Part shown: in pieces, positions 21,287-52,886 of the stretch | Layout of the letters: each line of letters begins with the position of its first letter | How positions within the stretch are numbered: position 1 is the stretch's first letter | Assembly: GCA_035249365.1 (NCBI GenBank) | Contig: DATFGP010000022.1 | Coordinates: 192,013 to 256,012, forward strand | From: Pyrinomonadaceae bacterium | Lineage (GTDB): Bacteria > Acidobacteriota > Blastocatellia > Pyrinomonadales > Pyrinomonadaceae | Direction of reading: 5' to 3' | DNA: 64,000 nt | Notes under the pieces: model-generated | What the model was told of the DNA's origin: nothing | Databases searched by the model: none | The model's input: only the letters and a program-made list of their open reading frames with translations | Program-made: the position numbers and the translations under genes

Positions 21287-21345
21287 AGCTTTTTGTGTCG
21301 GCTAAGAGCTAACAGCTAATAGCCAACAGCTTATTAATCGGTATC
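21287..21345. repeat. Short foldback element, AGCTAAC/AGCTAAT heptamer type
   Basis: GTTATTAGCT ... GGCTAAGAGCTAACAGCTAATAGCC arms. Confidence 0.5.
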
Positions 21346-21517: not shown

Positions 21518-21628
21518 GCGCGTTGAGCAAAGACGTGGTGAGTTAAGGCGACTTGCGGCCACGTAAAATAAACAGCTAAACAGCACGGCTCTCCAAGAGA
21601 GCATCTCCAACTTCAAGACGCTTTTTTG

Positions 21629-21662
21629 AAGTCCCGCGTTGTTTGGCGCGGGAGTTTTTTTT
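21629..21662 (+). terminator. Rho-independent terminator/attenuator in the metH-like leader
   Basis: TCCCGCG-ttgtttgg-CGCGGGA stem followed by T8. Confidence 0.7.
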
Positions 21663-21665
21663 AAG

Positions 21666-21751
21666 TGACAAGTGACGAGTGACAAGTGACAAGTTAAATC
21701 AAAAAACTTGTCTTCCATCTTGTCACTCGTCACTTGTCACTCGTCACTGAT
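21666..21751. repeat. Foldback element R4 (GTGACAA type), ending 5 nt before the metH-like ATG
   Basis: AAGTGACAAGTGACGAGTGACAAGTGACAAG ... CTTGTCACTCGTCACTTGTCACTCGTCACTG. Confidence 0.85.
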
Positions 21752-23652: not shown

Positions 23653-23712
23653 CCGACGGCACGCGCGACTGTGATTGAACGCGGCAAGGCAATCGAAGAC
23701 TCACCGCAGAGA

Positions 23713-23800
23713 CGCAGAGGACGCAGATGGGGCGCAGAGAAAGACATTAATCTTCTCTCTGCGCCCCATCTGCGTCCTCTGCGTCTCTGCGGTGAATGTT
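23713..23800. repeat. Foldback element, CGCAGAG/ACGCAGA heptamer type, downstream of the metH-like gene
   Basis: CGCAGAGACGCAGAGGACGCAGATGGGGCGCAGAGAA ... TTCTCTCTGCGCCCCATCTGCGTCCTCTGCGTCTCTGCG. Probably terminator-competent. Confidence 0.7.
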
Positions 23801-28987: not shown

Positions 28988-29020
28988 ACAGTGACGAGTG
29001 ACAAGTGACAAGTGACGAGA
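28988..29020. repeat. Left arm of an R4 foldback element whose loop carries a protein gene
   Basis: CAGTGACGAGTGACAAGTGACAAGTGACGAG. Pairs with the right arm at 29384-29426. Confidence 0.8.
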
Positions 29021-29382
29021 TAAAAACAAGCGGTTATAAAGATTTGCTTGTGTGGCAAAAGGGCATTGCTTTAGTAAAGCAGGTTTATCGAATCACTGAC
29101 GTGTTTCCCTCGGAGGAAAAGTTCGGCCTTGTTTCACAAATGCGCAGAGCCGCAGTTTCAATACCTTCGAACATAGCAGAGGGACAGGCGCGCCATACCA
29201 AAGGAGAATTCGTACAATTCATTTCTCACGCGGAAGGCTCAGTTGCAGAGTTAGACACACAACTAATAATCGCTGTTCAACTGACTTATTGCACGCAAGC
29301 GCAAGCCGACAGCGCATTTGAACTTATAACGGAGTTGCGGAGAATGCTTAATGCCCTACGCAGAAAGCTCACAAGCACTTAG
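29005..29382 (+). CDS. Four-helix-bundle protein (23S rRNA intervening-sequence protein family, TIGR02436-like)
   Basis: KDLLVWQKGIALVKQVYRIT...FPSEEKFGLVSQMRRAAVSIPSNIAEG are family hallmarks. Probably starts with a GTG inside the repeat arm. Confidence 0.8.
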   Translation: MTSDEIKTSGYKDLLVWQKGIALVKQVYRITDVFPSEEKFGLVSQMRRAAVSIPSNIAEGQARHTKGEFVQFISHAEGSVAELDTQLIIAVQLTYCTQAQADSAFELITELRRMLNALRRKLTST

Positions 29383-29383
29383 T

Positions 29384-29426
29384 TCCTATGGCTTTCACTT
29401 GTCACCTGTCACTTGTCACTCGTCAT
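29384..29426. repeat. Right arm of the same R4 element
   Basis: GGCTTTCACTTGTCACCTGTCACTTGTCACTCGTCATCG. Its complement provides the D-E-stop of the zapA-like gene. Confidence 0.8.
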
Positions 29427-35387: not shown

Positions 35388-35416
35388 TTGACACCCTTTA
35401 GACCTTGCACTACCAT
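35388..35416 (+). promoter_or_regulatory. Putative sigma70-type promoter of the nuo operon (TTGACA-N17-TACCAT)
   Basis: Exact -35 hexamer, 17-nt spacer, and a TAnnAT -10, about 80 nt upstream of nuoA. Confidence 0.45.
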
Positions 35417-35493: not shown

Positions 35494-35973
35494 GTGCGTA
35501 ATTTCGACCTGAAAGATTACTTGCCGATCCTGCTCATGTTCCTCGTCGCAGGGGGATTTGCGGGCGGCAACATACTGCTCTCTCAACTCGTCGGGCAGCG
35601 TAAGCAGACGCGCACGAAGTTGATGCCCTACGAGTGTGGCAAAGACCCTGTGGGTTCTGCGCGCGAACGCTTCTCGGTTAAGTTCTACTTGATCGCGATG
35701 ATCTTCATACTCTTCGACATCGAGTTGATCTTCCTGATGCCATGGGCGGTGGTCTTCAAATCGCTCGCGGCGCAAGGCGCGGCGATGCGCAATTTGATCT
35801 TCGTAGAGATGATGCTGTTCGTCGTGCTGCTGCTCGTGGGCTACGTCTACGTGTTGAAGAAGGGTCTGTTTGATTGGAACGAGCGGGCGCGGACTGAGGC
35901 GATAGGCGAAGCGCACGCGCTGGCTTTGAAGGAAGCGCGCAGGGCTGACGTGGAGCATCGCGCCGCAGCCTGA
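35494..35973 (+). CDS. nuoA: NADH-quinone oxidoreductase subunit A (extended C-terminus)
   Basis: Three TM helices and the conserved YECG motif. Has about 40 extra C-terminal residues. Confidence 0.9.
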   Translation: MRNFDLKDYLPILLMFLVAGGFAGGNILLSQLVGQRKQTRTKLMPYECGKDPVGSARERFSVKFYLIAMIFILFDIELIFLMPWAVVFKSLAAQGAAMRNLIFVEMMLFVVLLLVGYVYVLKKGLFDWNERARTEAIGEAHALALKEARRADVEHRAAA

Positions 35974-36005
35974 CCAATGTCTAAGCCCACGCGGGAGTTT
36001 TAATT

Positions 36006-36656
36006 ATGGGTCTCGAAAATAAGATCGCGGAAGCACTGCCGGAAGTGTTGACGACGACGCTCGACTCAATCGTCAACTGGGCGCGCAAGTCCAGCCTGTG
36101 GCCTGCGACTTTCGGCCTCGCCTGCTGCGCCATCGAAATGATGAACGCGACGAGCGCACGAAACGATCTGGCGCGCTTCGGCTCGGAAGTGTTTCGTGCA
36201 AGCCCGCGTCAGGCCGACGTGATGATCGTCTCAGGCCGCGTCTCGCGCAAGATGGCTCCCGTGCTGCGTCGCATCTACGACCAGATGCCCGAACCGAAGT
36301 GGGTTATCTCTATGGGCGCGTGCGCGACGTCGGGAGGCGTGTTCGACAACTACGCCATCGTGCAGGGCGTGGACAAGATCGTGCCGGTTGACGTGTACAT
36401 TCCGGGCTGCCCGCCGCGCCCTGAAATGCTCATCAACGCCGTGATGATGTTGCAGGACAAGGTGATGAAAGAATCTCTGCGCGACCGCCGCGACATTCCC
36501 GCCGCAGATGCGCGCGAAGCCGTCCCGCCGGGCACGCTGCCGGGCTCCGGCGTCTCCGCGCTCAACGAAGCGGCGGCGCAAAACGCAGACGAGAAGGCAA
36601 ACGTCTCGCGTCCATACACGATTCCCTCGCGGCACGAACGCCGAAGGTCTTCATAA
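36006..36656 (+). CDS. nuoB: NADH-quinone oxidoreductase subunit B
   Basis: CCAIEMM ... GCPPRPE N2-cluster motifs. Confidence 0.95.
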
Positions 36657-36660
36657 AAGC

Positions 36661-36760
36661 TGTCCGTTGTCAGTGGTCAGTTGTCCGTTGTTTATGTGAA
36701 ACGAGCAAGTGACTAAAGATTAGAGCGAACAACTGACAACGGACGACGGACAACGGACAA
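36661..36760. repeat. Foldback element R2 (GTCCGTT/GTCAGTT type), ending at the nuoC ATG
   Basis: TGTCCGTTGTCAGTGGTCAGTTGTCCGTTG ... CAACTGACAACGGACGACGGACAACGGACAA, immediately followed by ATG. Confidence 0.85.
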
Positions 36761-37306
36761 ATGAGCAAAGATATTGAGCGCGAACAGGCGATAGCCGAGC
36801 AAGCGGCGGGTGAGCCGTTGAAGGATCAGGCGGGCGCGGGGTTGATCGCCGCGCTGCAAGGGTCGCACGCAGACGCTGTTGTTGAGGTGATTCAGGCGTT
36901 CGGCGAGATCACGATTGTTGTGCCGCGCGAGCGCATCGTCGAGTTGTGCGAGTATTTGAAGACGACGCCGGAGTTCGAGTTCAACATGCTGGCAGACATC
37001 TGCGGCGTGGATCGTGGGCCGGAGGAAGACCCGCGATTTGAAGTCAACTATCATCTTTTTTCTACGACCAAATTCCATCGCTTACGACTCAAAGTTGTCG
37101 TCAGCGAAGAAGACGCGCGCGTGCCGACCGTGACGGGCGTGTGGCGCACGGCCAACTGGCACGAGCGCGAAACTTTCGATCTATTCGGCGTGCGTTTCGA
37201 CGGCCATCCCGATTTGCGTCGCATACTCCTGCCCGACGATTGGCAGGGGCACGCGCTCCGCAAAGACTTCCCGCTGCGCGGCTACGAGCCGTACAGCCTT
37301 AGCTAA
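36761..37306 (+). CDS. nuoC: NADH-quinone oxidoreductase subunit C
   Basis: 30-kDa subunit family. Separate from nuoD. Confidence 0.9.
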   Translation: MSKDIEREQAIAEQAAGEPLKDQAGAGLIAALQGSHADAVVEVIQAFGEITIVVPRERIVELCEYLKTTPEFEFNMLADICGVDRGPEEDPRFEVNYHLFSTTKFHRLRLKVVVSEEDARVPTVTGVWRTANWHERETFDLFGVRFDGHPDLRRILLPDDWQGHALRKDFPLRGYEPYSLS

Positions 37307-37415
37307 GTGACAAGTGACAAGTGACGAGTGACAAGTTAAAGACAAAAACAGTCTTCGCTCGCCACATGTCTTTATCTTATCTTGTCTCGTCACTTGTCAC
37401 CTATCACTCGTCACT
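37306..37415. repeat. Foldback element R4 (GTGACAA type) between nuoC and nuoD
   Basis: AAGTGACAAGTGACAAGTGACGAGTGACAAG ... CTTGTCTCGTCACTTGTCACCTATCACTCGTCACTG. Confidence 0.85.
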
Positions 37416-37423
37416 GATTACTT

Positions 37424-38635
37424 ATGGTCGCAAATCTTCCGCCGCAGTTCGAGGTTGTTGACCAACCGCTCGACACGCAGATGACGATCTCGATGGGGCC
37501 GCAGCACCCTTCGACGCACGGCGTCCTGCGTCTCGAACTCGTCCTCGACGGCGAGATGGTCATCAAATGCACGCCCGACATCGGCTATCTCCACACGGGG
37601 ATGGAGAAGCTGTTCGAGTACAAGAAATACCAGCAAGGCATCGTCATCACAGACCGTATGGATTACCTGAATCCGCTCGGCAACAATCTTTGTTATGTGA
37701 TGGCGGTGGAGAAATTGCTCGGCCTCGAAATACCGGAACGCGCGCAGGTGATTCGCGTCTTGATGTGCGAGTTGCAGCGCATCGCCTCGCACATGGTCTG
37801 GTTGGGGACGCACGCGCTCGACATCGGCGCAATGAGCGTTTTCTTCTACGCCTTCCGCGAGCGCGAGAAGATTTTGAACTTGATCGAAGCCGCGTCGGGC
37901 GGTCGCCTGACGCCGTCCTACTTCCGCATCGGCGGTTTGATGATGGACTTGCCTGCGGGTTTCGAGAGTCGCGTCAAGCAGTTCATAGACAAGTTTCCGA
38001 AGGCGGTTGACGAGTTCGAGACGCTGCTTTCGGGCAACCGGATTTTCCAGTCGCGCACGAAGGGCATCGGCATCATCACTGCCGAAGACGCGATTGACAT
38101 GGGCGTCACGGGGCCGTGCCTGCGCGGGAGCGGCGTCGCCGTTGACGTGCGGCGTACGAATCCTTACACGGGCTACGAGACTTACGATTTCGACGTTCCG
38201 GTCGAACAGAGTTGCGATGTGTGGGGGCGCTACCTTGTACGTATGCGCGAACTGCGCGAGTCTCTGAAGATCGCGCGGCAGGCTCTCGGTCGTTTGAAGC
38301 CGGGGCCGGTCAAGGCCGACGCGCCGAAAGTTGTCTTGCCGGATCGCGAGGCGATGAAGACGCACATGGATGCGCTCATACACCACTTTTTGATCGTGGC
38401 CGAAGGCTTCAACGTTCCGGCGGGCGAAATTTATCACCCGATTGAAGGCTCGAAGGGCGAACTCGGCTGCTACGTGAAATCGGACGGCGGCCCGAAGCCC
38501 GCGCGCGTACACTTTCGCGGCCCCTCGTTCGTCAACCTCTCCGCCCTGCCGCACATGTCGGAAGGCGAGATGGTCGCAGACGTGGTCGCCATCATCGGCT
38601 CACTCGACATCGTGCTCGGCGAAATAGACAGGTAA
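37424..38635 (+). CDS. nuoD: NADH-quinone oxidoreductase subunit D
   Basis: 49-kDa subunit (GPQHPSTHGVLRL...). Confidence 0.95.
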   Translation: MVANLPPQFEVVDQPLDTQMTISMGPQHPSTHGVLRLELVLDGEMVIKCTPDIGYLHTGMEKLFEYKKYQQGIVITDRMDYLNPLGNNLCYVMAVEKLLGLEIPERAQVIRVLMCELQRIASHMVWLGTHALDIGAMSVFFYAFREREKILNLIEAASGGRLTPSYFRIGGLMMDLPAGFESRVKQFIDKFPKAVDEFETLLSGNRIFQSRTKGIGIITAEDAIDMGVTGPCLRGSGVAVDVRRTNPYTGYETYDFDVPVEQSCDVWGRYLVRMRELRESLKIARQALGRLKPGPVKADAPKVVLPDREAMKTHMDALIHHFLIVAEGFNVPAGEIYHPIEGSKGELGCYVKSDGGPKPARVHFRGPSFVNLSALPHMSEGEMVADVVAIIGSLDIVLGEIDR

Positions 38636-38640
38636 AACGT

Positions 38641-38732
38641 CCGTTGTCAGTAGTCAGTCGTCCGTTGCATGTGACAACCGCACAAGTTGCTAAAGATTTG
38701 GATTGAACAACTGACAATGGACTACGGACAGT
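38641..38732. repeat. Foldback element R2 between nuoD and nuoE
   Basis: GTCCGTTGTCAGTAGTCAGTCGTCCGTTG ... CAACTGACAATGGACTACGGACAG. Confidence 0.85.
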
Positions 38733-38738
38733 TTCTTT

Positions 38739-39299
38739 ATGAGTAAACAGTTCACGCCCAACAATCCTTTGCCGCAGGAAGCGCCCGTGCCTGATGAGGT
38801 CGCGAAGTTTTCGGCGGCGGTCGAGGCGGAGATTGACGCGCATCTAGCGAAGTATCCGGTGAAGCGTTCGGCGATCTTGCCGATCATGTTCGTCGTGCAG
38901 CGCGAGCGCGGCGGCTATCTGGACAAGCCGGGTGTGGCATATCTCGCGGATCGTCTGGGCGTGCGCGTCACGGACATCTGGGAAGTGGCGACCTTCTACT
39001 CGATGATCAACACAGAGCCGGTCGGCAAGTATCACTTGCAAGTTTGCCGCACGCTCTCGTGCAAGATTTTAGGCGCGGACAAGATCACAGAGCAGTGCGC
39101 GAGCCGTCTCGGCATCAAGCCGGGCGAGACGAGCGCGGACGGGCAGTTCTCGCTCTCCGAAGTGGAGTGCCTCGGCTCTTGCGGCACAGCCCCTATGTTG
39201 CAGATCGGTTTCGACTACTACGAAAACCTGACGCCGGAGAAGGTTGACGAACTCATAGAGAAGTGTCGCAACAATCAACTCCCGAACGGCGTCCGCTGA
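38739..39299 (+). CDS. nuoE: NADH-quinone oxidoreductase subunit E
   Basis: 24-kDa subunit with Cx4C...CxxxC 2Fe-2S motifs. Confidence 0.9.
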   Translation: MSKQFTPNNPLPQEAPVPDEVAKFSAAVEAEIDAHLAKYPVKRSAILPIMFVVQRERGGYLDKPGVAYLADRLGVRVTDIWEVATFYSMINTEPVGKYHLQVCRTLSCKILGADKITEQCASRLGIKPGETSADGQFSLSEVECLGSCGTAPMLQIGFDYYENLTPEKVDELIEKCRNNQLPNGVR

Positions 39300-39371
39300 A
39301 ATTTACAGAAGTTTTGCCGGTCGCAAGTTACGGAGTTTAACTAGATCAAGTTTTCGTCTCCTGTAAAGAAT

Positions 39372-40697
39372 ATGTTTATCGGTGCAATCGGTTGCGAACC
39401 GCTACAACTCGCCCGCGTCAGTTTAGAGCGTTCGCAGTCGCTCGAAACTTATCAGCGGCACGGTGGCTACGAGGCGCTGCGCAAAGTGCTGAATGGTATG
39501 TCGCCTGACGATGTGATCGCGGAGATGAAGAAGTCTGCGTTGCGCGGTCGCGGCGGCGCGGGTTTTCCGACGGGCATGAAGTGGAGTTTCGTGCCGAAGC
39601 TGAAGCAGGGCGAGACGCGGGAATCGCACCCGCGTTACGTCGTCTGCAACGCAGACGAGTCTGAGCCGGGCACTTTTAAGGATCGCTACATCATGGAGCG
39701 CGATCCGCACATGCTCATCGAAGGCATGTTGATTGCCGCCTACGCGCTCGACTCGAAGGCCACTTACATCTACACGCGCGGCGAGTATCGCTACCTGATC
39801 GAGATCATGGATCGCGCGATCGAAGAAGCACGCGCCGCCGGTTTGGTCGGCGATAAGATTTTGAAAACAGACTTCTCGTGCGAGGTCTACACGCACACGG
39901 GCGCGGGCGCGTACATCTGCGGCGAAGAGACGGCGCTCCTTAATTCACTCGAAGGCTTGCGCGGACACCCGCGCATGAAGCCGCCCTTCCCCGCAGTCGC
40001 AGGTCTCTATGGTTGCCCGACGGTCGTGAACAACGTCGAGACGCTGACCGCCGTGCCCGACATCATCAAGATGGGCGGCGAGGCTTACCAGAAGTTGGGG
40101 ACGGAAAAAAGCGGCGGCACGAAACTCTGGTCTGTCTCAGGCCACGTGAACCGACCCGGCGTGTACGAACTCCCGATGGGCTACTCCGACATGGAAAAGT
40201 TCATCATGGAAGACTGTCAGGGCATCTCGAACGGGCGCAAGCTCAAGGCCGTGATTCCGGGCGGGTCGAGCGTCTACATCATGCCCGCGTCCGACATCGA
40301 AGGCAAGAAAGTTACGATGGATTACGAGGGTCTGGTCGCCGCCGGTTCGTCGGTCGGCTCGGGCGGCTTCATCGTGATGGACGACACGGTTGACATCTTC
40401 GAATCGACGAAGAACCTGACGGAGTTTTACAAGCACGAATCCTGCGGCTGGTGTACGCCCTGCCGCGAAGGCACGGACTGGCTCGTCAAAGTTTTCAAAC
40501 GCATCGCGCGCGGCGAAGGCAAAGCCGACGACGCGCAACTTCTACTGGACTTGTGCGACAACATCGAGGGCAAATCCTTTTGCCCGCTCGGCGACGCCGC
40601 CTCCTGGCCGATCCAGTCGGCCATCAAGAAGTTTCCCGAAGACTTCAAGAAGCACCTTTCGTCACTGATACAAGTGAAGGGGGCACCGGGGAGTTGA
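39372..40697 (+). CDS. nuoF: NADH-quinone oxidoreductase subunit F
   Basis: 51-kDa subunit. GRGGAGFPTG FMN site, CGESEPG..., and a C-terminal 4Fe-4S motif. Confidence 0.95.
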   Translation: MFIGAIGCEPLQLARVSLERSQSLETYQRHGGYEALRKVLNGMSPDDVIAEMKKSALRGRGGAGFPTGMKWSFVPKLKQGETRESHPRYVVCNADESEPGTFKDRYIMERDPHMLIEGMLIAAYALDSKATYIYTRGEYRYLIEIMDRAIEEARAAGLVGDKILKTDFSCEVYTHTGAGAYICGEETALLNSLEGLRGHPRMKPPFPAVAGLYGCPTVVNNVETLTAVPDIIKMGGEAYQKLGTEKSGGTKLWSVSGHVNRPGVYELPMGYSDMEKFIMEDCQGISNGRKLKAVIPGGSSVYIMPASDIEGKKVTMDYEGLVAAGSSVGSGGFIVMDDTVDIFESTKNLTEFYKHESCGWCTPCREGTDWLVKVFKRIARGEGKADDAQLLLDLCDNIEGKSFCPLGDAASWPIQSAIKKFPEDFKKHLSSLIQVKGAPGS

Positions 40698-40722
40698 ACT
40701 TCATAAGCGAGGTAGTCTTATT

Positions 40723-41253
40723 GTGAGAACCATAAGTGAAGAGATCATCCATGAAGGAAAACATTTCAAGGTGATTCACGAGACTGTTGAGATTGAAGGG
40801 AAAATTAGGGTATGGGAATATGTTAAACGCAAAGACGGGACGCGGACAATAGCAATTGATCAAAACAATAATATTCTTTTAACAAGAGAATACCGGCATG
40901 AGTTGCGAGCTGAAGATTGGCGCTTGCCCGGCGGCAGATTGGATGATGAGAGTGAGCCGATAGCAGAAGCTGCTAAAAGGGAGTTTCGAGAAGAAACCGG
41001 CTTTATCGCCGACAAGTGGGAATATCTATGGTCAACCACGCCGGAATCAACGGTTAGATATTTCAGGCATTTTTTTTTGGCGACCGAACTTAAGCAAGGA
41101 CAGAGCGAACCTGAAGAGGGGACAAAGATCACTGTTCACTGGATACCACTTCCTCAAGCATATGAGATGGCACTGCGCGGCGATATTAAAGAAGAGATTG
41201 CCGCGCTTGCGATTATCAGGTTCTTTCATAAAGCTGAAATGAGAGGAAGGTAA
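40723..41253 (+). CDS. NUDIX hydrolase (ADP-ribose pyrophosphatase-like) in AT-rich island
   Basis: Nudix box GGRLDDESEPIAEAAKREFREETG. Local GC is much lower than in the flanking nuo genes. Confidence 0.8.
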   Translation: MRTISEEIIHEGKHFKVIHETVEIEGKIRVWEYVKRKDGTRTIAIDQNNNILLTREYRHELRAEDWRLPGGRLDDESEPIAEAAKREFREETGFIADKWEYLWSTTPESTVRYFRHFFLATELKQGQSEPEEGTKITVHWIPLPQAYEMALRGDIKEEIAALAIIRFFHKAEMRGR

Positions 41254-41369
41254 TATCTGAATTCTTCAACTTTGATAAAGTATGTTGAGTCTGAAAGTTT
41301 TTTGGTAAACGCATTGGATTTTGGCTAAGGCGCCGCGATCTAATAATTTATATTTTTGGCCTTTGCCTG

Positions 41370-42386
41370 TTGCAATCGTTCTTCTTCACATGTCAAGGAC
41401 ACATAGCGATGCAACCACCGTCGAACTTGAATAACAATAAGCCGGGTAAAGATAATGAATCGTTATTAAAGAAAGTCCTCAGATTACTCGGCATTCTAGG
41501 CTTGGGCGTTTTAGGTAGTTGGCTGGCTGGTAAAATTCCAACCTCAGACCACTTGCCTAATTTGCAGCGGTTTCAGATGGCTATTCCTTGGATATTGGCT
41601 ATCTTTTTCTTTATAACAACGTCGCTCTTGTATTTGAAATCGCGCGGGCATAAAGAGCTGGAAGGCAGAAAGAACGCACTGGAAAGCAGAAAAACCGAAT
41701 TAGATGCGGAATGCAAACGCTTACAAGAAGATTACTCGTCATTAGAGATCGAAGTCAAAAGATTACAGGAGGAGAACTTAAAGCTTCAAATCGAACTGCC
41801 ACGGGAGTGGGTAGGCATTCAGGAGCGGACTGGACTTCAAGGTTACGATCCTGACTTGAGTGATAGCCCGTTTCATCCTGAAAGGTGCTTGCCGACAATC
41901 GGTAAGAGTTTAAGTTTTATGGGTCACGGCGCAAGCAAATGGACGGCGCATGTCCCACCGCTGGAAGATATGCTTGAAAGAATCCGGGGTGAAAGAAACA
42001 AGAATAACTCAAAGGCAGTAGTAAAATTTCTTATTCTTAATCCGGCTCACGAAAAGAATACAAAACAACAGCGCCGCAGAATTGCAGTCAGTTTGATGAA
42101 TCTCAAATTTTTGCAGAATGAATTTCCGGAAGTGTTAATGATAAGGGTTTTCAATCACCTCCCACAGTTCAGATTAATTTTTATTGATGGTAAAAAACTC
42201 GTTGTTGGACATTACGGGGGCGAACAAAGAAAAGAGAGCGACAATACTCCTTTGCATGTTTATAGTATCGAAGGTGAATGGAGTTTCTTTCATCCTTTCG
42301 AGGAACATTTCAATACTGAATGGGCTGCCGCCAAGGTTCCAGAGTGGACGGAAATCGACACCATTGCAAACCAACCGGTCAACTGA
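41370..42386 (+). CDS. Hypothetical membrane protein with coiled-coil and an uncharacterised C-terminal domain (AT-rich island)
   Basis: Two TM segments, then a heptad-rich region (ELEGRKNALESRKTELDAECKRLQEDYSSLEIEVKRLQEENLKLQ), then an about 170-aa C-terminal domain. No family recognised. Confidence 0.55.
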   Translation: MQSFFFTCQGHIAMQPPSNLNNNKPGKDNESLLKKVLRLLGILGLGVLGSWLAGKIPTSDHLPNLQRFQMAIPWILAIFFFITTSLLYLKSRGHKELEGRKNALESRKTELDAECKRLQEDYSSLEIEVKRLQEENLKLQIELPREWVGIQERTGLQGYDPDLSDSPFHPERCLPTIGKSLSFMGHGASKWTAHVPPLEDMLERIRGERNKNNSKAVVKFLILNPAHEKNTKQQRRRIAVSLMNLKFLQNEFPEVLMIRVFNHLPQFRLIFIDGKKLVVGHYGGEQRKESDNTPLHVYSIEGEWSFFHPFEEHFNTEWAAAKVPEWTEIDTIANQPVN

Positions 42387-42409
42387 CAAGAAGACAGTGA
42401 GAAATCATT

Positions 42410-43465
42410 ATGAGTTCCAAGACAAGATTTCTTGATCTAGCCATGCACGGCGGATGCTCGAAGAAGGTTGGCGGCAAGGATTTACAAAGACTGCTTTCCA
42501 ATTTAGCTGACTCCGAAACGGATCACCAATTTTCTGAAATTAAAGGCTGGCTGGATTTTGGCCTTTATGAGCGTAAAGATGAGGCTCTAATAAGTAATGT
42601 TGATATTGTTCTGCCGATGGTTCCTAATCCTGCCGACTTCGGGGAAATTGTTGTTGCACATGTCTTGAGCGACATTTACACATCTGGAGCAAAGCCGCTT
42701 TTCGGGCTTAACATCCTCGGCGTTCAACAAACCATTGATTTAAGCAGTAACGGCAATGACATAAAGTTAATGCTGGCATCTGCTGCTAAAAAGCTACACA
42801 GCGCAGGAGCGCAACTCGTCGGCGGGCACTCGATTGGAAATCAATCTGACCTTTATTACGGTCTAGCAGTGTTCGGGATAATTAACAAAGATTCGTTAGT
42901 AACGAACAAAGGGGCCAAAACAGGTGATGCTTTAGTCCTAACAAAACCGCTTGGAACCAGCATCGCCTCAAAACTATGGAAGAGTAATCATCACCTTGAG
43001 AACGATTTCCAAGATGTGTTAACAGGTATGAAGCAACTCAATGACATAGCAGCAGAAGAAATGCTTAAAGGCCAAGCTCACGCTTGTACTGACATCACAG
43101 GTTTTGGCTTGCTCGGCCATACACATAATCTGCTTCGTGCGAGTGAGGCAGCTTGCGTCATCAACGTCGAGAACTTGCCCATTTATGATTCGGTGCAAGA
43201 CTTCGGCGGAGCTGAGTATCAAACGATGATTTTCGATAAGAATAAAGAATACGTCGTTGACTACGTAAATGACGATGATGTAGAGCTAACTTCATTGCTT
43301 GATGTTGTTATTTATGATGCTCAGGTTTCCGGCGGTCTACTCGTAAGTCTTACTCATGAGGAAGCTGGCAAATATGTCGAACGATTGAGAGACAGAGGAG
43401 TTACAGCATCTATTATTGGCGAGGTAGTAGAAGGTCAAGCGGGGTATATAACGCTTTTGCCATAA
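42410..43465 (+). CDS. selD: Selenide, water dikinase (selenophosphate synthetase), Cys-type, in AT-rich island
   Basis: Collinear with E. coli SelD throughout. N-terminal HGGCSKK loop corresponds to the catalytic Cys/Lys. Also PMVPNPADFGEI, GGHSIG, DITGFGLLGH. Confidence 0.8.
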   Translation: MSSKTRFLDLAMHGGCSKKVGGKDLQRLLSNLADSETDHQFSEIKGWLDFGLYERKDEALISNVDIVLPMVPNPADFGEIVVAHVLSDIYTSGAKPLFGLNILGVQQTIDLSSNGNDIKLMLASAAKKLHSAGAQLVGGHSIGNQSDLYYGLAVFGIINKDSLVTNKGAKTGDALVLTKPLGTSIASKLWKSNHHLENDFQDVLTGMKQLNDIAAEEMLKGQAHACTDITGFGLLGHTHNLLRASEAACVINVENLPIYDSVQDFGGAEYQTMIFDKNKEYVVDYVNDDDVELTSLLDVVIYDAQVSGGLLVSLTHEEAGKYVERLRDRGVTASIIGEVVEGQAGYITLLP

Positions 43466-43477
43466 ACGGATTTATAA

Positions 43478-45787
43478 ATGACTACAGAACTAATCAAAGT
43501 TACGATCAATGGCAACCTCTACGAAGTGGAGAAGGGTGCGCGCCTCATTGATGTGTGCCGCGAGCGTGGGCACGCCGTTCCCTCTTTCTGTTATTACGCA
43601 GACCTCGCGCTGCAAGCCTCTTGCCGTATGTGCCTTGTGCGCATCGAGAAGATGCCGAAGCTGCAAACGTCCTGCACGATCACCTGCACGGACGGCATGA
43701 GCGTCACGACGGAAAGCGAAGAGATCGAGAAGGCGCAGCGCGGGATGGTCGAATTTTTGCTCGCCAACCATCCGCTCGATTGTCCCGTCTGTGATCGCGG
43801 CGGCGAGTGCGAGTTGCAGGAGATGGTCTTCGACTGGGGCGGCCTCGAAGAACGCTTTCGGGAGAAGAAGAACTACTACCCCGAAAAATTCCTGTCGCCT
43901 ATCGTCGCTAACGATCCGCAGCGTTGCATTTTGTGTAAACGCTGCACGCGCGTCTGCGATGAGTGGATGGGCGAGGACGCTATCGAAGCGGGTGGGCGCG
44001 GCGCGAACACAGTCATCGGCACGTTTGACGGCTGGCTCAATTGCTCACAGTGCGGCAACTGCATCGAAGTCTGCCCGACGGGCACGCTGCTAGATGCTAC
44101 ATACCGACATCAAGCGCGGCCTTGGGAACTCTCGCAGACGATCACGACATGCAATTTTTGCTCGGACGGCTGCCAGATGTCGCTCGGTTCGCGCGCCGGA
44201 GAAGTAATGCGTTCCGTCGCGCGCGACCGTTACGTCAACGGCATCAACGGCGAGTTTCTATGCATCAAAGGCCGCTTCGCGCACCCCTTTATCAATCACG
44301 ACGAGCGCATCAAGACGCCGCTCATACGCTACAAAAAGGGCGGCAAGCTAATTCCGGCGACGTGGGACGAAGCCATACGCCACACCGCCGCGAAACTGCA
44401 AGAGATCAAAACGGCACACGGCGGCGACTCGATCGGCGTCGTCGGCAGCCCGCGCATCACGAACGAGGCAAACTACGCGCTCTTGAAGTTCGCGCGCGAA
44501 GTCGTCGGCACAGAGAACTACACCGCGACGGACGCCTTCTCGCTCGTGCCCTTCTTCGCGAATTTGAGCGCGCCGCTGGCGACGCATCGAGACATTCGCC
44601 ATGCCAAGACGATCATACTCATCGGCGGCGAGCCGGAAGAGTTGCAGCCGCTCACGGGTCGGCAGATCAGGCAGGCCGTCCGAAACGGCGGCGCAAAACT
44701 CGTCGTCGTGGGCAGCGTGCCGATTCGTTTGAAACAAGCGGCGACGCAGTTCATACACATCAATCCGGGCGCGGAAGATGCCGCCGTGCTCGCTTTCGCT
44801 GGCAGCGAATACGCGACTGCCGCGCACAAGTCGGGCGTAGAAGCGCGTGAGTTTGAAGATGCGCGGCGCATCGTAGAAGAGACGACGGGCGATGTCGTCG
44901 TCATGTTCGGCGAGTTGAGCGCGGCGGCGCAAACGGCGCTCGCAAACATTCCTTCAAATTACGGCGAGCAAACCGGCCGACGCTTTTTGTTTCACCCGCT
45001 CCCGCTCTACAACAACAGCGTCGGTGTACACGATCTCGGCTTGATGGGGGGCGCGCTCGACGCCGCAGGCATGCTCGATGCGGCGGGCACGAGGCTTCGC
45101 GCGCTTTACGTCGCGGGTAGTTTCTTGCCACGGCATCTCGCGGGGCGCGAGGACGCGCTCTCGAAGCTGGACTTCCTCGTCGTGCAGGAAATGTTCGAGA
45201 CGGAGACGACCGCGCACGCCGACGTGATCTTTCCCGCCGCGTCCTACGCGGAGACGGACGGGACGTTTACGAACAACGACGGGTTAGTGCAGCGCGTGCG
45301 CCAGTCAATTCCGCCCGTTCATCAATCGAGACCGGACTGGATGATCACTGACGCGCTCGCGCAGGGGCTAGGCGCAAACTTCGACTTCCAGTGGTCGGCC
45401 GGAAAAGTCTTCCTCGAGCTTGCGCGCAGCACGGCGGCATATGCGGGCATGAAGTTCGCGCTTTTGAAAGACGAGACGCAGCCTGTTCAAGCGAGGCACG
45501 CGGTTGCAGGTAGCGGCGCGAGCGATGCCGTGTCAGGTGCGCTGGCAAGTTTACGCGAGACGGTCGAGGCGTTGAGCTATACGGGCGAGAAGATCACGGA
45601 GACGCCGCCCGTCGGGCATGAACTGTTTAAGCCGGGGACGCTGACGGGCAAGACGCCGCAGTTCCCTCTGCTCGACGCCGGAAACCCGAAACCGCCCACA
45701 GTGCTCGTGTCGCCGCTTTATCAAATTTCCGTTGACCCCGCGCTGCGCCGCGCGACTGTGAACGCCGCAGCCGCCGCAGGAGACTAG
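43478..45787 (+). CDS. nuoG: NADH-quinone oxidoreductase subunit G
   Basis: 75-kDa subunit. N-terminal 2Fe-2S ferredoxin, and CPxC.../CxxCxxxCP clusters. Confidence 0.95.
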   Translation: MTTELIKVTINGNLYEVEKGARLIDVCRERGHAVPSFCYYADLALQASCRMCLVRIEKMPKLQTSCTITCTDGMSVTTESEEIEKAQRGMVEFLLANHPLDCPVCDRGGECELQEMVFDWGGLEERFREKKNYYPEKFLSPIVANDPQRCILCKRCTRVCDEWMGEDAIEAGGRGANTVIGTFDGWLNCSQCGNCIEVCPTGTLLDATYRHQARPWELSQTITTCNFCSDGCQMSLGSRAGEVMRSVARDRYVNGINGEFLCIKGRFAHPFINHDERIKTPLIRYKKGGKLIPATWDEAIRHTAAKLQEIKTAHGGDSIGVVGSPRITNEANYALLKFAREVVGTENYTATDAFSLVPFFANLSAPLATHRDIRHAKTIILIGGEPEELQPLTGRQIRQAVRNGGAKLVVVGSVPIRLKQAATQFIHINPGAEDAAVLAFAGSEYATAAHKSGVEAREFEDARRIVEETTGDVVVMFGELSAAAQTALANIPSNYGEQTGRRFLFHPLPLYNNSVGVHDLGLMGGALDAAGMLDAAGTRLRALYVAGSFLPRHLAGREDALSKLDFLVVQEMFETETTAHADVIFPAASYAETDGTFTNNDGLVQRVRQSIPPVHQSRPDWMITDALAQGLGANFDFQWSAGKVFLELARSTAAYAGMKFALLKDETQPVQARHAVAGSGASDAVSGALASLRETVEALSYTGEKITETPPVGHELFKPGTLTGKTPQFPLLDAGNPKPPTVLVSPLYQISVDPALRRATVNAAAAAGD

Positions 45788-45789
45788 AA

Positions 45790-45882
45790 GGAGGGATGAG
45801 GGCGGAGGGATGAGGGATGAATAAGAGATGTTCTTAAGCTCTTAGTTATTCCTGTTCATCCCTCATCCCTTATCCTTCATCT
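45790..45882. repeat. Foldback element, GGGATGA heptamer type, between nuoG and nuoH
   Basis: GGAGGGATGAGGGCGGAGGGATGAGGGATGA ... TCATCCCTCATCCCTTATCCTTCATCTC. Confidence 0.8.
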
Positions 45883-45892
45883 CTTGATCGTT

Positions 45893-46975
45893 ATGGACTG
45901 GAACACAATCACATACGTCGGCTTGAAAATGCTGGGCATCAACATCGCCTTCGTGGTGGTCTTGATGATCGTGGCCTATACGGTGCTGGCGGAGCGGCGC
46001 ATTCTCGCGCTGATTCAGGGGCGCTTGGGGCCAAACCGCGTCGGGCCGGGCGGGCTTCTGCAACCGTTCGCAGACCTTTTGAAGTTTATCTTCAAAGAAG
46101 AGATCGTGCCCGATAAGGCGACGAAGTTCGTCTATTTTCTCGCACCCTTCATCGCCATCGTCGGCGCGCTGATGACGATCATAGTCTACCCGTTCGGGCC
46201 GGAAGTGAACCTTCCGTTCCTCGGCACGATCAAACTCGTCGTCGCGCAGTTCGATGTAGGACTCCTGTATGTGTTGGCGATCACTTCCATAGGCGTCTAC
46301 GGTATCGCGCTTGCCGGTTGGTCTTCCAACAACAAGTACAGTCTGATGGGCGGCCTGCGCGCGGCGGCTCAACTCATCTCTTATGAGCTTTCGCTGGGGC
46401 TGGGGCTGGTCGGCGTCGTGTTGTTGTCGGGCACGCTTGACCTCTACCAGATCGTCGAGCATCAATCCGGCTATTGGTGGGTGGCGGGCGTCGTGCCAAT
46501 TCCGCGCTGGAATATTTTCCCGCAATTCATAGGCTTCGTCGTCTACCTGATCTCCGCGATTGCAGAGACGAACCGCGTGCCGTTCGACTTGCCGGAGGCG
46601 GAGACGGAACTCGTCGCGGGCTTCCACACGGAATACAGTGCCTTGAAGTTCGCGCTCTTCTTCATGGCCGAGTACGTCAACATGTTCACGGTCTCGATGC
46701 TGGCGGCCACGCTCTTCTTCGGCGGCTGGAATTTCCCCTGGCTCGATCTCCTCGTCGCACGCGGCGGGTTTCTGTTCGGGCTGTTGAGCCTCGTCGCGTT
46801 TCTCTTGAAAGTTTTGTTCTTTCTCTTTTTGTATATCTGGCTGCGCGGGACGCTGCCGCGTTTTCGCTTCGACCAGTTGATGAACTTCGGTTGGAAATTT
46901 TTGCTGCCGGTGGCGATCCTGAACGTCGTTTTGACGGCGACGGTCGTGTTCGTCTTGATGAGTTTACGACCCTAG
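45893..46975 (+). CDS. nuoH: NADH-quinone oxidoreductase subunit H
   Basis: ND1 family (LAERRILALIQGRLGPNRVGP...). Confidence 0.95.
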   Translation: MDWNTITYVGLKMLGINIAFVVVLMIVAYTVLAERRILALIQGRLGPNRVGPGGLLQPFADLLKFIFKEEIVPDKATKFVYFLAPFIAIVGALMTIIVYPFGPEVNLPFLGTIKLVVAQFDVGLLYVLAITSIGVYGIALAGWSSNNKYSLMGGLRAAAQLISYELSLGLGLVGVVLLSGTLDLYQIVEHQSGYWWVAGVVPIPRWNIFPQFIGFVVYLISAIAETNRVPFDLPEAETELVAGFHTEYSALKFALFFMAEYVNMFTVSMLAATLFFGGWNFPWLDLLVARGGFLFGLLSLVAFLLKVLFFLFLYIWLRGTLPRFRFDQLMNFGWKFLLPVAILNVVLTATVVFVLMSLRP

Positions 46976-47055
46976 CGCGCGGGGCGTGGACGCAGGCAGG
47001 CATCTTTGTAAACATCGCCTGCTGCGGTCGGCTTTCGCTCGATAGTTTTTCACTT

Positions 47056-47730
47056 ATGACGACTTTTCTCTTCGTGCTGTTGGCTGGTCTCGCGGTCGGT
47101 TCTGCCGTCGCGATGGTAGTGCAGCGCAATCCGCTCTACAGCGCGATCTCTCTGATCGGCGTCTTCATCGCGCTCGCAGGGTTGTACCTGACGCTCGCCG
47201 CGCCCTTCCTCGCTGCCATACAGATCATCGTCTACGCGGGCGCGATCATGGTGCTCGTCGTCTTCGTCATCATGCTGTTGAACGTCGAAGAAGAGGAGCG
47301 CAAACCCGTGCGGCTCGGTTATCTGACCGCCGCCGCCATCCTGCTCGCGGCGATTCTCTTCGGCGAGGCCGGATTCATACTCTATTTCATGGGGCAGTCG
47401 AGCCTCGAACCGCTCGACCCGAACGCCATCGGCGACCCCTCGAACGTCGGCCTGACCACATCCATCGGGACGGGACTTTTCACGAACTACCTGCTGCCCT
47501 TCGAGATCACGTCCGTGCTGCTCTTGATGGCGATTGTCGGCGCGTTGACGCTCGCGCGTCGCGTCGGGTTGCGACCGACCGATCTAGTGATCCCCGGCGC
47601 GCAGGTGCTGACGCGACAGACGCTCGACCCGAAAGCGATTGGCGACGCAACAGAAGTTGTGACTTCGACGACCGCAGAGGCCGAACGCGTGCTCGGACTC
47701 GAAGGCGCGCGGCACAGGCGCGAACAGTAG
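47056..47730 (+). CDS. nuoJ: NADH-quinone oxidoreductase subunit J (extended C-terminus)
   Basis: ND6 family N-terminus MTTFLFVLLAGLAVGSAVAMVV. Follows nuoH directly, with no nuoI between them. Confidence 0.85.
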   Translation: MTTFLFVLLAGLAVGSAVAMVVQRNPLYSAISLIGVFIALAGLYLTLAAPFLAAIQIIVYAGAIMVLVVFVIMLLNVEEEERKPVRLGYLTAAAILLAAILFGEAGFILYFMGQSSLEPLDPNAIGDPSNVGLTTSIGTGLFTNYLLPFEITSVLLLMAIVGALTLARRVGLRPTDLVIPGAQVLTRQTLDPKAIGDATEVVTSTTAEAERVLGLEGARHRREQ

Positions 47731-47745
47731 AGGGGAAAAGTGTCT

Positions 47746-48054
47746 ATGCCCGGTGTATCTCTTTCATGGTATCTCGCGCTCTCGGCGGTGTTGTTCACCA
47801 TCGGCGTGGCGGGCGTCATCATCAAGCGCAACGCCATCGCCATGTTCATGTGCATCGAGTTGATGTTGAACGCCGTCAATTTAACCTTCGTCGCCTTCTC
47901 AAGTTACTTCCGAGATGCTAGCGGCCAACTCTTCGTCTTCATCGTGATGACGGTGGCGGCGGCTGAAGCGGCGGTCGGACTCGGCATCATCCTCGCCGTC
48001 TTTCGCAACCGCGAATCGCTCGACGTGGACGATTCCAGCGTGTTGAGGAACTGA
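47746..48054 (+). CDS. nuoK: NADH-quinone oxidoreductase subunit K
   Basis: ND4L family. Confidence 0.9.
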
Positions 48055-48058
48055 AGAT

Positions 48059-48179
48059 TGTCCGTTGTCAGTAGTCAGTTGTCCGTTGCTTGTGGTTACG
48101 ACACAAGTTGCTGAAGATTGAGTAGATCAACTGACAATGAACAAAGAACAACTGACAACGGACTACTGACAACGGACAG
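48059..48179. repeat. Foldback element R2 between nuoK and nuoL
   Basis: TGTCCGTTGTCAGTAGTCAGTTGTCCGTTG ... CAACTGACAACGGACTACTGACAACGGACAG, with 5 nt to the nuoL ATG. Confidence 0.85.
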
Positions 48180-48184
48180 CCCTT

Positions 48185-50599
<2,415 letters not shown>

Positions 50600-50606
50600 A
50601 CAACTT

Positions 50607-52175
50607 ATGTCGCGTCACCTGTTAACCATCCTGATTCTGTTGCCCGTCGCGGGCGCGCTCACAGCCGTCGTCTACGGCATGGCCGCGCGCCACAGCGAGA
50701 CGGCATCCAAGTGGATCGCGCTCGCCTTCTCGACGGCGACCTTCGTGCTCTCGCTACTGCTTTTGACTGGCGGCGGCTACGCCGACTCGGCGGCGTTTCG
50801 TTTTGAAATTAATGAAGCGTGGATCGGGGCTATCGGCGCGCGTTATCACGTCGGCGTTGACGGCATTAGCCTGTGGCTCGTCATACTCACGACGCTGCTC
50901 GTGCCCATCTCTATCATCTCAAGTTGGCATGCTGTAGAGCGTCGCCCGCTCGCTTTCTACACCTTCATCCTGCTCCTTGAGAGCGCGATGCTCGGCGTCT
51001 TCGTCTCGCTCGATCTGCTCGTCTTCTACCTCTTCTTCGAGGCGTCGCTCGTGCCGATGTTTTTCCTCATCGGCGTGTGGGGAGGCGAGCGGCGTATTTA
51101 CGCGGCGGCGAAATTTTTCATCTTCACGGCGATCGGCAGTCTCCTGATGCTCGTCGGCATCATCGCGCTTTACTACATACATGCCAATCCGGATCAGGCG
51201 GGCTTCGGAACATTCGACTACGTGACCCTGCTCGAATCGCTTCGCAACGGTAAGTTGAAGCTCGGCGAGGACGCGCAGTTCTGGCTCTTCCTCGCCTTCG
51301 CCATCGCCTTCGCGATCAAAGTGCCGCTCTTCCCGTTTCACACTTGGCTACCCGACGCGCACACGGAAGCGCCGACCGCAGGCTCAGTCATTCTCGCGGG
51401 CGTGCTCTTGAAGATGGGCACTTACGGATTGATGCGCTTCAACCTCGTGCTCTTCCCCGATGCCTCGCGCAAGTTCGCATGGCTGATGATCACGCTCGCC
51501 GTCATCGGCATCATCTACGGCGCGCTCGTCGCGATGGTGCAACCGGACGTGAAACGGCTCGTCGCCTACTCGTCGGTCAGCCACATGGGATTCGTCATGC
51601 TCGGCCTGTTCTCTTTCACCGAACAGGGCATGCAAGGTTCGCTCTACCAGATGCTCAATCACGGCGTCTCGACGGGCGCGCTCTTTCTGCTCGTCGGCAT
51701 GATCTACGAGCGACGGCACACGCGCATGATCTCCGAGTTCGGGGGCTTGGCGAAACCGATGCCCTGGTTTGCGACGCTTTTTGTTTTCGCATCGTTGTCA
51801 TCTGTCGGCTTGCCGATTTTGAACGGCTTCGTGGGCGAGTTTTTGATCATGCTCGGCATGTGGACTTCGCCTGCGCTCTCGCAGACGTGGTCGCGCGTGG
51901 TGACGATGCTCGCGGCAACGGGCGTCATCTGGGCGGCGGTCTACATGCTCTGGATGTTGCAGCGCGTACTCTTCGGGCGCGTGAAAAACGAGAAGAACAA
52001 ACGCTTGACTGACCTCAACTGGCGCGAACTCGGCTTGCTCCTGCCGCTGCTCTTGTTGATGATCTACATGGGCGTCTACCCGCGCCCGTTCCTGAATCGC
52101 TCGCGCGCCGCAGTCGAACTCGTACGCTCGCGCGTCGTGGCAACGGAGAGCGGCGGCGTGATCGCCGAAAAGTAG
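50607..52175 (+). CDS. nuoM: NADH-quinone oxidoreductase subunit M
   Basis: ND4 family. Confidence 0.95.
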   Translation: MSRHLLTILILLPVAGALTAVVYGMAARHSETASKWIALAFSTATFVLSLLLLTGGGYADSAAFRFEINEAWIGAIGARYHVGVDGISLWLVILTTLLVPISIISSWHAVERRPLAFYTFILLLESAMLGVFVSLDLLVFYLFFEASLVPMFFLIGVWGGERRIYAAAKFFIFTAIGSLLMLVGIIALYYIHANPDQAGFGTFDYVTLLESLRNGKLKLGEDAQFWLFLAFAIAFAIKVPLFPFHTWLPDAHTEAPTAGSVILAGVLLKMGTYGLMRFNLVLFPDASRKFAWLMITLAVIGIIYGALVAMVQPDVKRLVAYSSVSHMGFVMLGLFSFTEQGMQGSLYQMLNHGVSTGALFLLVGMIYERRHTRMISEFGGLAKPMPWFATLFVFASLSSVGLPILNGFVGEFLIMLGMWTSPALSQTWSRVVTMLAATGVIWAAVYMLWMLQRVLFGRVKNEKNKRLTDLNWRELGLLLPLLLLMIYMGVYPRPFLNRSRAAVELVRSRVVATESGGVIAEK

Positions 52176-52222
52176 TAAGCGCATATTTCAACTTTGAAAG
52201 CGGCAGATTTGATAGTGGAATT

Positions 52223-52825: not shown

Positions 52826-52886
52826 TCATTGTTGCTGTCACCGCTCGCCGTTTGAATTTGACGGCTGTTAGTGCTGAGTTAAAAAG

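Follow-up and report, generated by a model that had tools for sequence, protein, structure and literature searches.

The window analysed here covers 64 kb from the genome of a soil acidobacterium of the Pyrinomonadaceae (Acidobacteriota), and its plus strand carries the nuoA-N operon (35494-54464); NuoC homologues up to 96% identical to that of the window are likewise annotated as Pyrinomonadaceae. Several junctions between the genes of this operon are occupied by short palindromic elements built of tandem heptamers, typified by the one between nuoC and nuoD. This focal element, a family A (AGTGACR) hairpin on the plus strand (37305-37415), opens with 4.6 copies of AAGTGAC (arm 37305-37336), continues into a 49-nt loop and closes with the reverse-complement array (arm 37386-37415). 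Its first heptamer overlaps the TAA stop codon of nuoC (37304-37306), while on the other side a U-rich spacer of 8 nt, GATTACTT (37416-37423), without a Shine-Dalgarno (SD) motif, separates it from the ATG (37424-37426) of a gene whose product gives a NuoD Pfam match. The RNA of 37290-37460 is predicted to fold at -53.7 kcal/mol (z = -4.8 against shuffles).

Other nuo junctions show comparable arrangements on the same strand. Family B (ACKGACW) hairpins lie between nuoB and nuoC (36661-36760; ending in ...ACGGACAA and abutting the nuoC ATG at 36761 with a gap of 0), between nuoD and nuoE (38639-38731; ending in ACGGACAG, then TTTCTTT and the ATG at 38739) and between nuoK and nuoL (48058-48178; with the terminus ACGGACAG, then GCCCTT, of which CCCTT lies past the terminus, and the ATG at 48185). 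The nuoG/nuoH junction holds a GAGGGAT-type hairpin (45790-45885), whose last heptamer runs to about 45884 and is followed by 9 nt and the ATG at 45893; its left arm is SD-like and its right arm, CATCCCTCATCCC, anti-SD-like. A family A hairpin 3' of nuoN (54459-54547) encloses the nuoN stop TGA (54462-54464) in its first heptamer and is followed by TCTT and the ATG at 54552, which opens a reading frame only weakly supported as coding (score 20.6; nothing matched in Pfam). Away from the operon, a further family A copy (21663-21748, plus strand) is separated by the gap GATTTCTT from the ATG (21757) of a metH-like gene coding for a fused homocysteine S-methyltransferase/MTHFR. A preliminary description of this DNA had given the spacings before nuoC, nuoD, nuoH, nuoL, the metH-like gene and the gene at 54552, all of which we recover at the window coordinates; for nuoE the gap, put there at 9 nt, measures 7 nt (TTTCTTT).

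In all, 17 heptamer-array elements were mapped in the window, 16 of them without an open reading frame (ORF); in two cases, 21301-21331 and 38639-38731, the repeat finders did not supply the pairing, which was assessed by eye. They comprise seven copies of family A, four of family B, two GGGAAAG-like copies and single GAGGGAT, CGCAGAG, CCATCAG and decayed GCTAACA copies. All the window arrays are paired as inverted repeats and thus form hairpins, the element being a palindrome of 85-120 nt with about four tandem heptamers per arm. For comparison, we assembled a sample of related loci, namely 117 eight-kb blocks among the matches listed in a scan with the family A pattern plus eight nuo loci; the sample is seeded with family A, and the window's own genome lies outside it. 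Tandem Repeats Finder (TRF) and an inverted-repeat finder together yielded 110 period-7 hairpins from Acidobacteriota, with a median arm of 28 nt, a median loop of 31 nt and as many as 45 heptamer types; TRF reports period-7 arrays of about four copies in every arm.

The closeness of these hairpins to start codons is pronounced. In the window, 11 hairpins end 0-20 nt 5' of a start codon, nine of these at 0-9 nt. Among the related loci we used a test free of any gene model, which scored an ATG 0-12 nt past the hairpin that opens at least 100 codons and took shifted positions as the control. Such an ATG follows 60 of 98 Acidobacteriota hairpins (61%), as against 2.5% per end in the shifted controls, a 12-fold enrichment; the earlier statement that the elements end 0-12 nt before starts is thus borne out well beyond the window. 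Genes in the related loci were further called with our own codon-usage ORF scorer, trained on window genes and taking the first ATG as the start, and here 62 of 75 hairpin-to-ATG gaps measure -3 to 12 nt with a mode of 5-8 nt. Hairpins from other phyla show a weaker proximity (4/18). The gaps fall into two classes: those of 0-12 nt are U-rich and devoid of an SD, and those of 17-25 nt usually contain a canonical one (5/7).

This closeness would be only apparent if the starts had been mis-assigned and the true ones lay further 3', a suspicion nourished by the alternative TTG and GTG starts that ORF lists offer within the arms and by the public annotation of nuoD in one relative (L122), which begins 60 nt downstream. 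We regard such an artefact as scarcely credible. Almost every NuoC homologue of 96-70% identity has a length of 175-184 aa, most often 181 aa; across eight orthologous nuo operons (L118-L125) conservation starts exactly at the ATG past a variable hairpin; and the flush nuoD ATG of L122 encodes the conserved N-terminus MSASTLPPQFEV, the public call being 60 nt too short. The N-terminal LPPQFEV of the NuoD of the window is conserved in L122. The enrichment over shifted controls argues in the same direction. Because the length of NuoC is conserved and cross-species conservation begins at these ATGs, the start codons of the window can be trusted. It is instead the gene callers that mis-set starts at hairpin junctions, as seen in the TTG starts placed in arms by the ORF list and in the public call for the L122 nuoD.

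The preliminary description also held that the elements leave no room for a canonical SD. Defining the SD by complementarity to the 3' end of 16S rRNA (GGAGG core) 4-13 nt 5' of the start codon, we find this to be the case: an SD motif is absent from all 54 gaps that measure at most 8 nt, and GGAG or GAGG precedes 2% of the flush genes versus 26% of the hairpin-free ones. Likewise, the mean duplex energy with the anti-SD CACCUCCUUU is -1.05 kcal/mol for flush genes versus -3.8 kcal/mol for hairpin-free genes. The nuoA/B and nuoJ/K junctions, which are free of hairpins, read GGAG, then TTTTAnTT, then ATG in all species; the gap that follows a hairpin (GCTTCTTT, GATTACTT, GCCCTT and so on) corresponds to the usual SD-to-ATG spacer of the clade, with the base of the stem standing at the position of the SD. 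The further proposal that the terminus of the element might itself serve as the ribosome-binding site is not supported. The terminal heptamers at one and the same junction differ wholly between species, the 110 hairpins present 45 types, the right arm before nuoH even resembles the anti-SD, and the computed complementarity of the termini to the anti-SD is essentially nil (the mean of -1.05 kcal/mol given above); these duplex energies rule out the termini as substitutes for the SD by anti-SD pairing. A leaderless mRNA arising from a promoter in the gap was also looked for, and no -10 box is found at positions -12 to -7. Since the flush genes lack an SD, their initiation must do without one, right at the base of a highly stable RNA helix and at an AUG that follows a short U-rich spacer. 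The predicted folds leave this AUG largely free (unpaired with P = 0.5-0.8), and most of positions -12 to -1 are in pairs.

While the start side had been recognized before, an equal closeness of the elements to the upstream stop codon had been missed. To elaborate, 93 of the 110 hairpins lie within 30 nt past a stop codon, and in roughly one case out of four the left arm itself contains that stop; an AGTGAC arm has a TGA in all three frames. Co-directional genes flank 63/110 hairpins and convergent genes seven, while none lies between divergent genes; hairpins are also found at convergent gene ends or after stops without a following gene (30/110). Not counting the hairpin, stop and start are separated by 7 nt in the median and by 20 nt or less in 76% of the cases, as against a median of 78 nt and 22% for hairpin-free co-directional junctions of the same loci. 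Being tight on both the stop and the start side, the elements therefore mark tight operon junctions, which they fill completely.

The orthologous nuo junctions of the relatives throw light on how this state is maintained. At nuoB/C, C/D, D/E, G/H and K/L a heptamer hairpin is present in nearly all eight relatives (NuoC 96-72% identical), and the heptamers themselves differ. At nuoC/D, for example, the AGTGACA of the window is matched in position by TTGCGGA in L118 and L122, AGTTTCA in L119 and L120, AGTCTCA in L121, AGTTCAA in L123, GAGTGAT in L124 and GTGACRG in L125. The closest relative, L118 (NuoC 96% identical), shares with the window the family B hairpins of B/C and K/L; its C/D and G/H junctions carry a single GCGGAWT family with a common loop sequence, and GCGGAWT arms recur at D/E. 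Empty sites are seen in L122, where B/C measures 17 nt and K/L 18 nt, the latter with two heptamers left in place. Furthermore, hairpins are nested in the loops of older ones at nuoG/H of L119, at the junction of a large-protein gene and zapA in L118, and in L067, L070 and L073. The simplest explanation for a conserved position with a replaced sequence is insertion into the loops of existing hairpins followed by decay of the outer arms. Such loop insertion would provide a mechanism by which an intergenic structure stays while its sequence is exchanged. Neutral outward growth by slippage until coding sequence is reached was considered and rejected because arm length is tightly centred on four units. 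A second type of intercistronic structure was noted at the nuoH/nuoJ junction (L118-L123), which has GC-rich GCGCGC…GCGCGC structures, no heptamer hairpin and no SD.

A clue to the nature of the elements comes from one copy in the window that carries a gene and represents their full form. Here, family A arms (28990-29016 and 29395-29425 of an element spanning 28990-29425, plus strand) surround an ORF (29005-29382) matching PF05635, the '23S rRNA intervening sequence protein' family (E = 1.9e-39), which displays foreign codon usage (score -13). This hairpin sits outside rRNA, between two convergent protein genes; at the orthologous junction the relatives have arms without the PF05635 gene or with another nested hairpin. 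L093 likewise shows arms together with the gene; the focal element and the remaining copies contain no PF05635 ORF. The association is not confined to this clade: in an Ignavibacteria locus a PF05635 gene adjoins AGTGAY arrays, and among 64 metagenomic PF05635 loci (L126-L205), drawn from many environments, a strong inverted repeat flanks 28, being a heptamer array in 25 cases. The units vary widely in sequence (AGTTCCC, AGGTAAC, AGTGGCT and GAGTTGT are examples) but often begin with AGT or AGG. Our literature search returned no account of inverted heptamer arrays as a general property of PF05635 genes. Exact AGTGACR x3 arrays also occur in many phyla (Ignavibacteria, L005; Chloroflexaceae, L006 and L105; a cyanobacterium, L002; Saprospiraceae, L014), some matches being coding repeats with a 21-nt period (Shewanella, L021; Alcanivorax, L020) and others intergenic arrays; it is possible that these arrays spread horizontally together with PF05635 genes.

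The rRNA intervening sequences (IVSs) that give this family its name, known from Coxiella burnetii and Leptospira, offer a close parallel. The IVS of Coxiella burnetii has a 28-bp terminal stem with GACAGAT heptamers and the S23p ORF inside it, and its stem is cut in the middle by the RNase III of both Coxiella and E. coli (PMC4990558). Like the elements described here, IVSs thus possess a heptamer stem of about 28 bp made by terminal inverted repeats, have a PF05635 (S23p) ORF in the loop, as the single window copy at 28990-29425 does, and insert at the apex of a pre-existing helix (PMC4990558). They differ in residing in helices of 23S rRNA, whereas the present elements occupy mRNA junctions and untranslated regions; in bearing an ORF, which 16 of the 17 window elements lack; and in that their excision by RNase III has been demonstrated, whereas for the present elements it is suggested by analogy. 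The 28-nt heptamer arms, the PF05635-carrying copy, the arrays that flank PF05635 genes elsewhere and the Coxiella IVS together imply that the junction hairpins are best seen as gene-less members of the same IVS/PF05635 element type.

With regard to expression, the only strong promoter-like site between 35.2 and 55 kb lies upstream of nuoA (35388-35416). A promoter scan of the nuo junctions and their hairpins found none, and a TTGTCA-based -35 element within the hairpins was considered and dropped, no -10 box following it. The terminator scan did not flag the nuo junction hairpins either; the gaps of the nuo operon carry U tracts of 2-4 nt, whereas an intrinsic terminator, with its short GC-rich stem and small loop, has at least 5-8 U directly after it; a few copies between operons carry U8 runs. 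The copy upstream of the metH-like gene is situated in a 5' untranslated region (5'UTR) 8 nt 5' of the ATG, with no upstream ORF. It is preceded by a SAM-II (SAM_alpha, RF00521) riboswitch at 21525-21600 on the plus strand (41.2 bits versus a gathering score of 36), with a terminator-like GC-rich stem and U8 run (about 21625-21662) between the two. Because the sole good promoter match lies upstream of nuoA and one hairpin lies downstream of a riboswitch, the junction hairpins are presumably transcribed. SAM-II riboswitches usually act by sequestering the SD; here the riboswitch lies 157 nt from the ATG, with the terminator-like stem and the heptamer hairpin in between. An Rfam search of the window found no RNA family matching any hairpin and no rRNA, the SAM-II riboswitch being the only match. 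In all, nine hairpins directly 5' of a start (30 nt or less) have no upstream ORF, the riboswitch-associated copy among them, so that translational coupling or re-initiation cannot be the general mechanism.

We think it rather probable that heptamer hairpins of the IVS type, most of them lacking a gene, have settled in the tight operon junctions of this clade and that the genes downstream of them initiate in an SD-independent manner, like most genes of the clade. Briefly, the elements would be mobile or turnover-prone, gene-less versions of the PF05635-carrying form, resembling miniature inverted-repeat transposable elements (MITEs), and would insert into the very short stop-to-start spacers of operons and into the loops of existing hairpins. 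Because the colonised spacers are very short, the elements come to abut both the upstream stop and the downstream AUG and stand where an SD would be. The near-perfect mRNA stems of about 28 bp would be expected substrates of RNase III, which might thereby separate the cistrons of the operon mRNA. When translation of the upstream gene ends at the 5' arm or within it, the ribosome might melt the lower stem and transiently free the 3' arm beside the next AUG, and this melting would favour initiation at that AUG. Of the features of MITEs, inverted-repeat-like arms, gene-less copies and a gene-carrying relative are present, but no target-site duplication is evident in the flanks.

Several points weigh against this interpretation. 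We identified neither a transposase nor a target-site duplication, nor any other machinery for mobility; a Pfam scan of 30 selected window ORFs turned up no transposase family, with no genome-wide search for REP-associated tyrosine transposases (RAYTs) made. PF05635 has no known enzymatic role and is not known to be a transposase. Cleavage of the junction hairpins by RNase III is an argument from analogy. The gene calls in the related loci depend on a home-made scorer, which sets every start at the first ATG. Conservation of position could alternatively mean that the hairpins are selected for a function. With respect to such selection at the RNA level, we compared the minimum free energies of the sense and antisense strands, in preference to counts of G·U and A·C pairs, the pairing register being ambiguous in repeats: the two folds are equally stable (52 vs 40, Wilcoxon p = 0.18), which therefore provides no evidence of selection on the coding-strand RNA. 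However, the loops of family B (…CAAGTKRCTAAAGATTGA…) keep one orientation relative to transcription at 8/8 independent sites (two-sided p ~0.008), one of them the minus-strand copy in the window, and this fixed orientation hints at a strand-specific constraint beyond what selfish DNA alone would produce. In the window, the four family B loops (3802-3922, 36661-36760, 38639-38731 and 48058-48178) have a common inner stem and an asymmetric single-stranded stretch, ...CAAGTTGCTAAAGATTGA..., which always falls 3' when the loop is read in the sense of transcription.

These last considerations lead to the question of whether the hairpin itself might be a translation-initiation device, either by a shunt-like re-initiation of terminating ribosomes, for which stop and AUG would be brought within about 7 nt of each other across the stem base, or by docking of the base helix on the 30S platform at the usual place of the SD/anti-SD helix, as a mimic of that helix or a standby site. 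The stop and the start do flank the stem at its base and, the hairpin aside, are a median of 7 nt apart; the gaps cluster at 5-8 nt, the usual distance from SD to AUG; the AUG is mostly unpaired with a paired -12 to -1 region before it; family B loops have a fixed orientation; and hairpins are kept at the same junctions while their sequences change, as if the structure were under selection. Nevertheless, L122 manages without a hairpin at nuoB/C and nuoK/L, having plain SD-less spacers of 17-18 nt there, the gap has no fixed length (0-12 nt), stability is without strand asymmetry, and 30/110 hairpins are at convergent ends or after stops with no next gene. Re-initiation, moreover, could not be general given the nine flush starts without an upstream ORF, one of them behind a riboswitch. 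We hence deem such a device unlikely. A wider version may tentatively be envisaged in which the hairpins would be intercistronic RNA modules, cut by RNase III or melted by ribosomes, with structure-driven initiation at the AUG and selection acting on the hairpin; this too we regard as unlikely. If true, it would amount to a bacterial counterpart of shunting and re-initiation, and selection on the hairpin would explain conserved positions with replaced heptamers.

Two other explanations appear weaker still. That the hairpins terminate or attenuate transcription, or stabilise the 3' end of the upstream cistron in the manner of REPs, and lie near starts only incidentally, would accord with the 93/110 that follow a stop within 30 nt, with U-rich gaps and with the long U runs after 13719-13805 and 9095-9178 and the GTGAATGTTTTT after 23701-23795. 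Yet the U tracts in the nuo operon are of 2-4 nt only and are followed by no promoter-like sites, efficient termination would silence the essential subunits downstream, the terminator scan passes over the nuo junctions, and the start-side tightness relative to hairpin-free junctions would be left unexplained; this explanation is accordingly quite improbable. Slightly less probable again is that the heptamer arrays bind a sequence-specific RNA or DNA regulator that recruits or blocks ribosomes, as proposed for the TAACTGA repeats of Beggiatoaceae. Family B units (CAACTGA/CAACGGA) are one base away from TAACTGA and have the same forward position directly 5' of the ATG, and heptamer repeats near starts have been implicated in regulation in Nostoc. 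However, a single sequence-specific factor does not account for 45 heptamers among 110 hairpins, nor for the unrelated heptamers that sister species have at one junction, and the arrays, always paired with an inverted partner, would be double-stranded in RNA.

Among known repeats, the closest description is that of the TAACTGA arrays. In marine Beggiatoaceae, Cyanobacteria and Bacteroidetes, TAACTGA direct repeats stand a few nt before starts that mostly lack an SD (MacGregor 2015, PMC4679880); in a Beggiatoa genome the largest class of arrays ends 1 nt upstream of the start, and in BOGUAY one of 170 repeat sets is inverted (PMC4679880). Related observations near start codons concern the cyanobacterial short tandemly repeated repetitive (STRR) and heptamer sequences, including those of Nostoc (bioRxiv 10.1101/2022.06.06.494920). 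As here, these are tandem 7-nt intergenic units lying a few nt from a mostly SD-less start, some arrays encroach on the end of the preceding ORF, and the family B units of the window differ from TAACTGA by one base. They are, however, direct arrays of one dominant heptamer, whereas each array here has a reverse-complement partner with which it forms a hairpin of about 28 bp, the heptamer types number in the dozens, and the stop-to-start junctions inside operons are filled; the conservation of position with turnover and the connection to PF05635 and IVSs are further features of the present elements.

Another comparison is with the repetitive extragenic palindromes (REPs), which are themselves insertion targets for other elements. 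REPs and bacterial interspersed mosaic elements (BIMEs), for instance the REPs of E. coli and the GTAG/CGTC-tagged ones of PMC3733652, are high-copy intergenic palindromes found mostly 3' of genes and between co-directional genes of operons, as are the elements described here. They differ in being 20-40 bp long with a conserved tetranucleotide head and RAYT transposases, whereas the present elements have heptamer arms of about 28 bp and no head; REPs are not characteristically set against start codons, and no RAYT was seen in the window. In the shunting of the 35S leader of cauliflower mosaic virus, as in bacterial coupling by the unmasking of a structured start, a stop lies 5' and a start 3' of a stem. 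The present junctions resemble these systems in geometry, except that some copies have no upstream ORF.

Our literature searches on such elements in Acidobacteria found nothing, and the gene-less IVS-type heptamer hairpins at Pyrinomonadaceae operon junctions might conceivably be a class without an earlier description, though we hold this with low confidence. In evolutionary terms, the results tie together three repeat phenomena, namely the heptamers next to start codons, the REP-like palindromes of operons and the rRNA IVSs with PF05635, and suggest that one element type targeting hairpin loops lies behind all three. On the functional side, many essential genes, including those at most complex I junctions, start 0-12 nt past a stem of about -50 kcal/mol without an SD. 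As these are SD-less starts of essential genes in a cultivable clade, SD-less initiation becomes directly testable, and the heptamer-hairpin junctions constitute a natural test system for it.

The minus strand of the window adds cases beyond those of the preliminary description. A family B hairpin (3802-3922) between fabF (stop 3928) and an etfB-like gene directly abuts the ATG of the latter (3802, gap 0); this copy is inverted relative to those of the nuo operon, as are its flanking genes. A CCATCAG-type hairpin (2961-3027) between etfB (stop 3029) and the next gene leaves a 16-nt gap to the ATG at 2944, and a GGGAAAG-type hairpin (6665-6744) between a gene ending at 6754 and fabD a 17-nt gap to the ATG at 6654. 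At the junction of a 3-hydroxyacyl-CoA dehydrogenase gene and a TPR gene, a family A hairpin (11025-11113) encloses the stop of the former (11100) in its arm and is followed by the 9-nt gap GTTTTGAAG and the ATG at 11017. The other gap class is exemplified by the family A hairpin at 13719-13805, where a U8 run and a canonical AAGGAG occupy the 20-nt gap before the ATG at 13700, an arrangement kept in the relative L044. Finally, a family A hairpin 3' of yceD (9095-9178) holds the stop TGA (9174-9176) in its arm, with the next start about 30 nt off and preceded by an SD-like AAGGA. A non-heptamer variant of the hairpin theme is found 3' of a methyltransferase gene, where a perfect 40-bp inverted repeat of CGCAGAG-like units of 8-9 nt (23701-23795) followed by GTGAATGTTTTT has a terminator-like appearance.

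Some features of the nuo operon itself may be recorded. Between nuoF and nuoG lies a low-GC (0.47-0.49) insert of three genes with foreign codon usage (40700-43470), coding for a NUDIX protein, a 338-aa protein of no assigned family and an AIR-synthase-like protein; L118 is without any insert there, and other relatives have a 137-148-aa ORF (L119-L121 and L124) or HicAB (L122) as cargo at this point. In L123 a SIMPL gene is found between nuoE and nuoF. No nuoI, coding for the 4Fe-4S ferredoxin subunit, lies between nuoH and nuoJ (46975-47740) in the window or between these genes in the eight relatives (L118-L125), so the gene must either lie elsewhere or be absent. Between nuoM and nuoN is lodged a gene for a redoxin/AhpC-TSA-like protein of the thioredoxin fold (52223-52825), the codon usage of which is native.

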